Below, piece by piece: positions 53,409 to 55,340 of a stretch of DNA of 64,000 nucleotides. Source of the DNA: Candidatus Gastranaerophilales bacterium. Lineage in GTDB: Bacteria > Cyanobacteriota > Vampirovibrionia > Gastranaerophilales > Gastranaerophilaceae. The first letter of the stretch is position 1. The number at the start of each line of letters is the position of its first letter. The notes below the pieces were generated by a model. It did not search any database. It was not told the DNA's origin and was given only the letters and a program-made list of their open reading frames with translations. The position numbers were made by a program, and so were the translations under genes. The DNA is taken from assembly GCA_947624325.1 (NCBI GenBank), contig CANQJT010000006.1, forward strand, positions 34,147-98,146. Reading direction: 5' to 3'.

Positions 53409-53795
53409 TTATACTCTACGTTTTTTTGGAGGACGGCAGCCGTTATGAGGAATAGGTGTAACGTCCTTAATTAATGTGATTTCGAGTCCTGCAGCTTGAA
53501 TAGCTCTTATAGCTGTTTCTCTGCCTGACCCGGGTCCTTTGATATAAACTTCAACTTTTTTCATACCTTGGTCTATTGATTGTTTTGCAACTTTTTCTGC
53601 TGCAGATTGTGCTGCAAACGGTGTACCTTTTCTTGCGCCTTTAAATCCGCATCCGCCTGCTGATGCCCAAGCAATAGCATTACCTTGAGTATCCGTTGAA
53701 GTTACGATTGTATTATTAAAGGTTGATTGTATATGTACAACACCTTGTAATACATTCTTTTTTTCTTTCTTTTTTGTTTTTACCGGTCTAGCCAT
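53409..53795 (-). CDS. rpsK: 30S ribosomal protein S11
   Basis: [30 protein letters not shown]...[12 protein letters not shown]. Confidence 0.96.
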
Positions 53796-53810
53796 TGTTT
53801 ATATTACTCC

Positions 53811-54182
53811 TTAAATTGTTTTCTTGTTGGCGATTGGGCCTGATTTCTTACCACGTCTTGTTCTTGCATTTGTTTTTGTTCTTTGTCCTCTTGCAGGAAG
53901 TTTACGTCTGTGACGCATTCCTCTGTAAGAATTGATTTCACTCAATCTCTTGATGTTTACTGATTCTTCTCTTCTTAAATCACCTTCGATTGTGTAATGA
54001 GATAATTCATCTCTTAATTGTTTAATATTGTCATCTGTTAAATCGTCTGTTCTTAAGTCTTCAGAGATTCCGCATGCTGCCAATATTTTTGCACTTCTGG
54101 TTGGTCCTATTCCGTAGATATAGGTAAGTGCAACTACCATTCTCTTATTACGAGGTAAATCTACCCCGGCAAGTCTTGCCAT
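53811..54182 (-). CDS. rpsM: 30S ribosomal protein S13
   Basis: [26 protein letters not shown]...[26 protein letters not shown]. Confidence 0.96.
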
Positions 54183-54240
54183 AATTTCTCCTTTTGTTTA
54201 TGTTTTTACTTTGATTGTTTTTGTTTTTTGGTTTCCGCTT

Positions 54241-54641
54241 GGATACGGGTTTGTTGCTCCCTCGGGCTCGTTCGGGTGCAGCGGCACCTTTAAAATTTGG
54301 TCTAACTTATTTATATTCGAGCCAAACTTTAAACCGGCTCTGCCGGCGCCCTACGGAAAATCAGCCTTGAAATTGCTTTTCGCTCGCTGCTGTCGTTGGC
54401 TTCGCTCCGTTGTCACCAACTTCGCTGTCCTGATTATTCGTCCTGCTCGCCCCTTCATTCCGCTTCGGAATTTCATTCCTGTCGCTCCATCGGGACTTCG
54501 CTTTGTTACGGGTTTCGCTTCGCTTCACCCTAGCGAAAATCGTCTTGAAATTGTTTCCCGCTCAAGCCTGTCGTTCGTTCGCCTTTGGCTGTCCTCACTT
54601 CGGCTTTCGCTACCCGGATTATCATCCGTCCGCAATTTCGC
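54241..54641. repeat. hairpin-repeat unit plus about 290 nt of GC-rich degenerate repeats (locus D) between rpmJ and rpsM
   Basis: GTTTGTTGCTCCCTCGGGCTCGTTC + GGTGC-AGCG-GCACC (54275-54288) + linker + CCGGC-TCT-GCCGG (54334-54346) + CGCC. Two degenerate units follow, each opening with CCCTA(C/G)(G/C)GAAAATC..CTTGAAATTG (54349 and 54528), pyrimidine-rich on the + strand. Confidence 0.85.
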
Positions 54642-54755
54642 TCAGCCTTGTCTTTGTTTGTGTTTCGGGTTTTCGCAAATTATTGCTACTCTGCCTTTTC
54701 TTTTTATTACTTTGCATTTATCACAAAGCGGTTTTACTGATGCTCTAACTTTCAT
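54642..54755 (-). CDS. rpmJ: 50S ribosomal protein L36
   Basis: Too short for the ORF track. The minus strand translates to [37 protein letters not shown] plus a stop. Confidence 0.95.
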
Positions 54756-54832
54756 GACTTTTTCCTTTATTTTTATCTTCTGATTTTTTCTTGCGCTAAA
54801 CTGCTTATTCTCTTTCTGACTTTATTGCAGTT

Positions 54833-55048
54833 CTACTTCAATCTGTATGTTATTCTGCCTCTTGTTAAATCATATGGAGTCATTTCTACTTTGACTTTGT
54901 CTCCGGGTAATATCTTAATAAAGTTTTTTCTTATTTTCCCTGAGATATGTGCTAAAATCTCATGCCCGTTCTCAAGCCCTACTCTAAACATAGCATTCGG
55001 CAGTGATTCCAATATCGTTCCTTCGAATTCTATTACGTCTTTTGACAT
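54833..55048 (-). CDS. infA: translation initiation factor IF-1
   Basis: [69 protein letters not shown]. Confidence 0.97.
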
Positions 55049-55340
55049 ATTTTCCTCATTTTTAAATTGTCAATAAAAATATCGTACATGTTAAATTTTT
55101 CAAATCAAGCCCTTTTTTCTTATACTGTTTTATTTTTTAGCTTTTTTATTTTATTTTATTCTTATTGTTTTTTTAATTTAAAGAAATACACACTGATTTT
55201 GCGATTATCTTAATCACCTATTTTCACTATTTTTTAAGTATTATGTAAATTTTTCTTAACATATTCAATGTTTTTTATCTTTATTTAAACAATTGATTAT
55301 CGTTATTTATCTTTATAATTTGCATGTTATTATTTTAAAT

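Follow-up and report, generated by a model that had tools for sequence, protein, structure and literature searches.

Several families of structure-forming repeats are known from bacterial intergenic regions, including the REP/BIME elements and REPINs, the BOX elements of Streptococcus pneumoniae, the ERIC/IRU and Correia (NEMIS) elements, and the NTS/SRM hairpins of the Ssn system. We compared these with a repeat array found in a Candidatus Gastranaerophilales bacterium, in a 64,000-nucleotide (nt) stretch of contig CANQJT010000006.1 (hereafter the window; positions are counted from its first letter). The array fills most of the 459-nt spacer (54183-54641) that separates rpmJ from rpsM, both on the minus strand of a ribosomal operon, and one of its components is a module of about 100 nt that we call the B unit. 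The account of the spacer that we consider probable is a co-transcribed, tolerated, lineage-specific repeat array placed at the rpmJ stop codon, a passenger of the operon rather than a conserved regulator.

Like the B units, REP/BIME elements are extragenic, multi-copy and structure-forming, occur in mosaics with other motifs, and often lie within operons or after genes; both have covarying stems, and REP/BIME elements are transcribed, as B units probably are. REPs can stabilize upstream mRNA, and those close to stop codons are reported, in work of Liang, Rudd and Deutscher from 2015, to affect translation. A REP, however, is a single palindrome of 20-40 nt with a GTAG foot, whereas the B unit is a three-helix module with a closing stem; the bases preceding the B head read NNT, with only the T conserved and no GTAG foot. 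In further contrast to REP/BIME elements, B units form perfect head-to-tail tandem arrays and start directly at the stop codon. REPINs, known from enterobacteria and pseudomonads, are mobilized by the Y1 transposase RAYT (PF01797). No match to this domain was detected in the genome holding the window (G000; G numbers denote genomes), nor in its copy-richest congeners, G046 (53 B copies), G047 (69) and G008 (47); PF01797 is present in 11 of 41 genomes, unrelated to B copy number, and RAYT/IS200-type mobilization was rejected. Lacking both a RAYT and a short GTAG-footed palindrome, the B family therefore cannot be classed with the REPs despite its REP/BIME- and BOX-like behavior.

BOX elements (boxA-boxB(n)-boxC) resemble the array in being modular and intergenic, with a variable number of internal modules, and in forming part of a longer transcript (probably so for the array) with predicted stable RNA structure and no transposase of their own. 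They belong to another phylum and the likeness is architectural only, no sequence relationship being expected; to our knowledge, neither anchoring at stop codons nor enrichment after translation genes is a BOX property. ERIC/IRU and Correia elements are like B units in their size of roughly 100-150 nt, their paired termini and their location in transcribed intergenic regions, and, being co-transcribed, they affect mRNA in ways that depend on their orientation. Unlike B units, they consist of a long imperfect palindrome whose terminal inverted repeats are fixed; the ends of B units do pair (GAAATTN with NAATTTC) but covary through C-G, G-C and U-A combinations, and the units form tandem arrays. 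Correia elements have a TA target duplication, whereas no target-site duplication was visible for B units when filled and empty sites were compared at rpsH|rplF (L160 versus L159 and L163; L numbers denote loci from relatives) and at rpmJ|rpsM. Set against a MITE (a non-autonomous DNA transposon), the B unit thus shows no target duplication, and its ends pair as terminal inverted repeats would, although by covariation rather than as a fixed sequence. The spacer also corresponds in position to the E. coli alpha-operon leader, the S4-binding pseudoknot of the Rfam family Alpha_RBS; the array shares this place upstream of rpsM but has no Rfam match, is not conserved and is made of dispersed repeats.

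Ssn, a GIY-YIG protein, is associated with hairpin repeats that, like the B family, occur genome-wide and cluster around particular genes, but its NTS/SRM repeat is a hairpin of about 30 nt, ATTCCC-N8-GGGAAT (PMC11893778), that is missing from canonical B units. A stand-alone GIY-YIG gene of 93 amino acids (aa) was found in G000 between dusB-like and DUF208-like genes (C1:153951-154229, minus strand; C numbers denote contigs). Its immediate neighbors, which it touches or overlaps, are ordinary genes, and no units flank it. The gene occurs in 38 of 41 genomes, among them G009, G017 and G037, which have no B copies; a link between the repeats and this core gene was accordingly rejected. A connection with the PF05635 (23S-rRNA-IVS-protein) cassette was discarded as well, G000 having no PF05635 match. 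A crude head-to-tail distance scan of G000 for an autonomous parent element, such as a transposase-encoding IS with matching ends from which a MITE would derive, gave only units of about 86-143 nt and random larger distances, and the genes lying between inverted units in G000 are ordinary ones, such as purB, with no gene-carrying parent among them. Replication-strand bias, as expected of a single-stranded DNA transposon, gave no signal, 12 of 19 loci agreeing with the local GC skew.

The first-pass annotation of the window had described a GC-rich repeat insertion of about 460 nt in the infA-rpmJ-rpsM operon, and this description held. The gap, taken from the open reading frame (ORF) table and the sequence, is 459 nt long, with about 49% G+C overall (0.44-0.54 along its length) against about 30% for the genome, and it carries repeat-family matches well above chance expectation. 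G000 itself comprises 1.98 Mb at 0.29-0.32 G+C and is 98.9% complete. The mRNA-sense strand of the spacer consists of 37% A, 28% G, 20.5% C and 14% T, and at 66% purine it is as purine-rich as had been stated. Comparison of the spacer with the whole genome by blast revealed two independent dispersed families within it, and the units are at most 89% identical to one another and to other loci. The spacer is composed of three to four repeat units arranged head-to-tail, followed by the native rpsM leader, all read on the minus strand.

The first of these, U1 (54542-54642), is a canonical B unit, AGCGAAATTGCGGACGG ... ACAATTTCAAGAC, whose position 1 is the final A (54642) of the rpmJ TGA stop (54642-54644). 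It scores 110.4 bits (E = 3e-23) with R1, a covariance model for the B unit built from 12 G000 copies after an initial nhmmer profile (which gives E = 1e-22), and it has the closing stem GAAATTG/CAATTTC, the CGGA../..TCCG hairpin and the three-tier arm. Next comes the 64-nt head of a second unit type (54478-54541), a fragment made up of GATTTTCGCTAGGG, a GGGT..ACCC hairpin and a GCGAA-rich stretch; heads of this type are also found in relatives, and its TTTTCGC pairs with GCGAAAA at 54375-54381 in the minimum free energy fold. U2 (54364-54477; AATGAAATTCCG ... GCAATTTCAAGGC) is a decayed B unit in which several pairs are broken, scoring 31.7 bits with R1 (E = 4.7e-5, with non-standard pairs flagged) and E = 7e-5 with nhmmer. 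It contains two small hairpins, the previously noted GGAAT-GAA-ATTCC and TTCCG-AAG-CGGAA. The first-pass annotation had read about 290 nt here as degenerate duplicated sequence in two units, each opening with CCCTAnnGAAAATC..CTTGAAATTG at 54349 and 54528; the openings are real (families D2 and D6) and mark unit junctions, but the stretch consists of an intact B unit, the head fragment and a decayed B unit rather than a pair of equivalent units.

U3 (54230-54362) is a hairpin/linker unit with head GATTTTCCGTAGGG, hairpin CCGGCAGAGCCGG at 54334-54346, an AT-rich linker of 45 nt, hairpin GGTGCCGCTGCACC at 54275-54288 and tail GAACGAGCCCGAGGGAGCAACAAACCCGTATCCAAGCGGAAACC. The two hairpins are those recorded earlier as H3 (CCGGCTCTGCCGG) and H1 (GGTGCAGCGGCACC), and the tail recorded with them, GTTTGTTGCTCCCTCGGGCTCGTTC, was recovered at 54249-54273 with 0 chance matches expected. 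U3-type units occupy the same site in L005, L006 and L014. The remaining 47 nt (54183-54229) form the native A-rich rpsM leader, with the Shine-Dalgarno sequence AAAGGAG (54188-54194) 5 nt ahead of the rpsM ATG (54180-54182). The leader, which L002, L005 and L006 also retain, is largely unpaired, and in the centroid fold both it and the Shine-Dalgarno sequence are free of pairing.

A covariation analysis of the fold, which the first-pass annotation had put forward as a check, strongly supported the structure of the B unit. RNAalifold applied to the 12 G000 copies gives a Y-shaped fold of three helices, in which a 7-bp closing stem joins both ends (GAAATTN with NAATTTC) and encloses a 5-bp hairpin, CGGAC/GTCCG, and a three-tier arm; compensatory changes were seen in 9 of the 20 pairs. 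In an alignment of 44 copies from the genus, whose pairing statistics are to be read with the caveat that the copies were fitted to the model, the paired fraction of cells is 96.2%, falling to 79.4% when columns are shuffled, and 18 of the 20 pairs show double changes. Sliding the partners by 1-3 columns reduced pairing to 12-59%. The covarying ends are visible in the raw sequences (GAAATTCC/GGAATTTC, GAATTTTC/GAAAATTC, GTAATTC/GAATTAC and GGTTTTTAC/GTAAAAACC). On the sense strand, G-U pairs outnumber A-C oppositions by 14 to 6, an excess that weakly favors this strand; as far as the alignment can tell, the pattern would be compatible with either RNA or single-stranded DNA. Folded as sense RNA, the entire spacer outperforms its shuffled versions (z = -2.35); as antisense RNA it shows no gain (z = +0.34). 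At another G000 locus (C10:34546-34762), roughly the first 30 nt of a B unit are repeated in inverted orientation ahead of it, the two together making a long perfect palindrome, GGACTTGCGTCCGTCCGAAATTTCGC...TTGAAATTTCGGACGGACGCAAGTCC.

The family is dispersed and its distribution is narrow. G000 holds about 14 full and 9 partial B units and about 15 hairpin/linker units, and repeated DNA is present in 223 of its 907 intergenic regions. R1 detected B units in 38 of the genus's 41 genomes; copy numbers range from 0 to 69, and perfect tandem arrays with a period of 100-102 nt are frequent. Other genera of the same family carry weaker variants of about 111 nt, and other families of the order almost none. 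An exact degenerate B pattern, scanned over 185,579 species genomes (one per species, bacteria and archaea), matched 89 stretches, nearly all in metagenome-assembled genomes (MAGs) of Candidatus Gastranaerophilales, Gastranaerophilaceae or Avigastranaerophilus from the guts of rabbit, goat, deer and other animals. Judged by these scans, the repeat superfamily is confined to a single family of Candidatus Gastranaerophilales (gut Melainabacteria). A literature search for repeats in Gastranaerophilales found no paper describing them.

The insertion was examined in relatives, a comparison that the first-pass annotation had proposed. Spacers between rpmJ and rpsM were extracted from 27 relatives. 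Among congeners they measure 19, 22, 69, 98, 134-151, 332, 350, 384, 409 and 665 nt; many lack an array at this site, and six carry other mosaics, the long spacers being differing combinations of common module types in a single orientation. Outside the genus the spacers are AT-rich, 88-179 nt long, and contain a conserved promoter-like block. In the nearest relative, G014, identity to G000 is 97.9% across 1.96 kb on the rpsM side, and the 350-nt spacer there has only window positions 54183-54274 (92 nt, leader plus tail) in common with G000; the remainder differs. The short congener spacers and the divergence of G014 thus establish the array as an insertion and rule out a conserved regulatory leader. 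A further module, 'C' (AAATCGGTCGGAGYGCAAAAA...), is present at this site in L005, L009, L011 and L014 and absent from G000, and so does not qualify as a conserved leader either. The perfect tandem arrays, coupled with module swapping, suggest that recombination or slippage would dominate the short-term dynamics of the family. At another junction, the 'empty' rplF|rplR spacers of L165-L169, 71-72 nt long, begin TAG AAATTAGCGTAG..., like a decayed head AGCGAAATTCCGTAGGG, and this start may be the scar of a lost array.

The array is followed by rpsM (S13; 53811-54182), the first gene of rpsM-rpsK-rpsD-rpoA, and preceded by rpmJ (ribosomal protein L36, 37 aa; 54642-54755) and infA (54833-55048), which opens the transcription unit, all on the minus strand. 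The other junctions of this operon had been described as 0-25 nt, which is correct for three of them (15, 23 and 19 nt) and not for infA-rpmJ, at 77 nt. A consensus scan detected no sense-strand promoter-like site within 54183-54641, such sites lying only upstream of infA (55066-55268), and a scan of 53700-55300 detected no terminator-like site on the minus strand. In keeping with the earlier expectation that the element would be co-transcribed with essential genes unless it had a promoter of its own, read-through into rpsM-rpsK-rpsD-rpoA is therefore the simplest reading. No Rho_RNA_bind domain (PF07497) was detected in G000, so that Rho is apparently missing from this gut Melainabacterium; its absence from cyanobacteria is known (PMC12642595). 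We considered whether the purine-rich composition could be an 'anti-Rho' adaptation, an idea made moot by the absence of the Rho domain; the purine-rich strand of GC islands in co-directional gaps is sense in 16 cases and antisense in 8, and these data are noisy.

These results suggest a model where the array is lodged against the rpmJ stop, ahead of the native rpsM leader, and a single transcript most likely runs from the infA promoter through rpoA. Tolerance of the insert would have several sources. The units contain no intrinsic terminator; in a genome apparently without Rho a long untranslated stretch should not be polar; an intact unit would fold on itself through the stem that closes its two ends; and rpsM retains a strong Shine-Dalgarno sequence of its own in an unstructured A-rich leader, so that its translation would be possible without coupling to rpmJ. 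The array would grow, shrink and exchange modules rapidly, with unequal recombination, slippage and exchange between copies as the probable mechanisms, and such fast turnover argues for a dispensable passenger of the operon rather than a conserved regulator.

An unexpected property of the units is their placement relative to stop codons. The first one or two bases of the head AGCGAAATT complete the upstream stop (T|AG or TG|A), and in G000 this head is found at the stops of rpmJ, rpsN (S14), rplF (L6), groEL and nusG; at rplL, fusA and a GGGtGRT-family gene, the unit that directly adjoins the stop is of the hairpin type or has another head. Further stop-adjacent units, from genus loci and the public scan, lie at rplL, probable rplC, probable dnaK (assigned from its C-terminal sequence alone) and several more genes. 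B units away from stops usually follow another repeat module or the T-run of a terminator. To follow the anchoring across species, the rplE-rpsN-rpsH-rplF-rplR segment of the spc operon was extracted from 30 congeners (L153-L182) and its junctions were judged by inspection, along with rpmJ/rpsM. The first unit begins 0-1 nt past the stop in all 37 junctions with a recognizable unit (14 at rpsN/rpsH, 4 at rpsH/rplF, 13 at rplF/rplR and 6 at rpmJ/rpsM), many of which are orthologous and so do not represent 37 independent events. The unit type at a given junction varies by species while the placement at the stop is constant. The rplE|rpsN junction of the 30 congeners is always tight, at 11-18 nt, and never carries a repeat; the other three are variably filled.

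Two junction registers occur, TAG|CGAAATT and TGA|GCGAAATT. The stops directly followed by a unit in G000 are TAG in seven cases, TGA in three and TAA in none, against 77% TAA genome-wide, and TAG is equally common at unfilled rplF and rpsN junctions of congeners. Models in which the units insert into a TA or T|AA target were rejected, as the flanks have only a T in common and no duplication.

Several observations weigh against a mere passenger. Placement at stops and enrichment after highly expressed genes are unlike purely neutral random insertion, and hint at targeting or at selection at the RNA level; in co-directional gaps the units are sense rather than antisense by 17 to 5. Structural covariation is kept among copies at orthologous sites, which could reflect selection in place. 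The searches for a mobilizing enzyme (Y1/RAYT, PF05635, GIY-YIG) gave none for a mobile passenger, and the number and order of units in the array are those given by short-read MAG assemblies. A role of the array as an RNA stabilizer or processing site is possible, anchoring at stops after highly expressed genes being the main reason to consider it.

The likeliest of the alternatives, to which we give a minor though real chance, is that the units act as functional RNA 'punctuation', blocking 3'-to-5' exonucleases or directing endonucleolytic processing at the stops of highly expressed cistrons, which would stabilize infA-rpmJ and uncouple its level from that of rpsM-rpoA. REP elements act in this way in E. 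coli operons, as do 3' stem-loops in the polycistronic transcripts of chloroplasts. The constant placement at the 37 filled stops with unit types differing at one junction, the strong conservation of the B fold, the excess of G-U over A-C on the sense strand, the gain in folding seen only for sense RNA, the 17:5 orientation bias, and the fact that 7 of the 9 upstream genes in G000 are translation or chaperone genes are all consistent with it, and a host without Rho is expected to lean more on RNA structure to define transcript ends (PMC12642595). In its fullest form, which we hold with the same reserve, the units would constitute a lineage-specific punctuation system of a Rho-less bacterium, situated at the stops of its most heavily expressed cistrons (those for ribosomal proteins, EF-G, NusG, GroEL and probable DnaK), having arrived there by stop-homing insertion or by strong selection for stop-adjacent placement; their task would be to delimit or shield the 3' ends of mRNAs and to fix the stoichiometry of cistrons, by analogy with chloroplast intercistronic stem-loops. 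Against this, the presence and module content of the units vary between close relatives, spacers of 19-22 nt suffice in congeners, and U2 is visibly decaying. Divergent gaps hold units as well, antisense units occur, some of them directly adjoining stops, and the unit counts come from non-independent events.

Far less probable is an internal promoter in the array, such as the TATAAAT box of the AT-rich linker, that would make rpsM-rpoA a separate transcription unit, for which the E. coli alpha-operon promoter is a parallel. The U3 linker does contain GAATATAAAT on the sense strand, and in other families of the order (L017, L018, L021-L025 and L027) a promoter-like ACTTGAAT-N17/18-TAnnnT is conserved upstream of rpsM. 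That block counts in favor of a promoter here; the genus of the window has lost it, so rpsM-rpoA would there have to rely on the infA promoter. The linker lacks a -35 element at a workable spacing, the scan described above gave no sense-strand site in the spacer, and congeners with spacers of 19-22 nt must read through from infA.

The first-pass annotation had also proposed an attenuator or a leader for S13/S11/S4 autoregulation. The position matches that of the E. coli alpha-operon leader and the RNA is structured, but we regard a cis-regulatory role of this kind as very improbable: the array is unconserved among congeners, even in the closest relative, and is built from dispersed units, only the unstructured 47-nt leader being conserved; no Rfam family matched at its gathering score, nor, Alpha_RBS included, at E <= 1 on 54100-54800; and no terminator-like hairpin with a U-run is present on the sense strand. 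Equally improbable is a metagenome-assembly artefact in which units from other loci were misjoined between rpmJ and rpsM, since, although units at many contig ends (the C5 start, the C15 end and others) show that assembly is disturbed, a 122-kb contig surrounds the spacer and synteny is conserved to either side of it, arrays occur at rpmJ-rpsM in six independent MAGs, and the three units (<=89% identity) are too divergent for easy collapse.

Taken by itself, a passenger array in this spacer is unremarkable, being repeat DNA in a gap that tolerates it. The family is of more interest, combining a well-supported three-helix fold, the lack of a recognizable mobilizing enzyme, and repeated placement at the nucleotide after the stop in operons that are essential and highly expressed, in a lineage apparently without Rho. 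Were the anchoring due to targeting, it would represent a new insertion specificity; were it due to selection, it would provide a bacterial counterpart to organelle-style intercistronic RNA processing and a ready-made insulating part for synthetic operons.

On the practical side, MAG assemblies break at the units, which also give rise to spurious ORFs. Several G000 contigs end in G+C-rich non-coding sequence (C5:1-254, C15:18834-18960, the C2 end, C3 start, C7 end, C9 start and C19 end), and at least the C5 start and the C15 end carry B units. The B units that come after the groEL stop at the start of C5 are identical to those at the C15 end, an identity indicating that the repeats break the assembly and that C15 probably joins C5. 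Four ORFs in the spacer gave no Pfam match. A plus-strand ORF of 190 aa (54211-54783), which crosses the array antisense to rpmJ, has no Pfam match and is rejected by the codon model; the pyrimidine-rich strand accounts for this artefact, which naive gene callers may annotate.

The spc-operon comparison also revealed two conserved features outside the repeats. In the rpsN|rpsH spacer (G000 C18:9484-9791; L153-L182), a block of about 55 nt just upstream of rpsH (CTTTTCTATACTGCyrGA..AGTAAGTAGT..AAAGGTAAAGGAA) is retained in all 27 congeners whatever repeats precede it; it may serve in S8 autoregulation or as a promoter. Upstream of rplR (L18), the rplF|rplR spacer (G000 C18:8289-8496; L153-L182) always closes with the conserved hairpin AAACCCTT-loop-AAGAAGGTTTGGGTGAAAGGAAAGAAAA.

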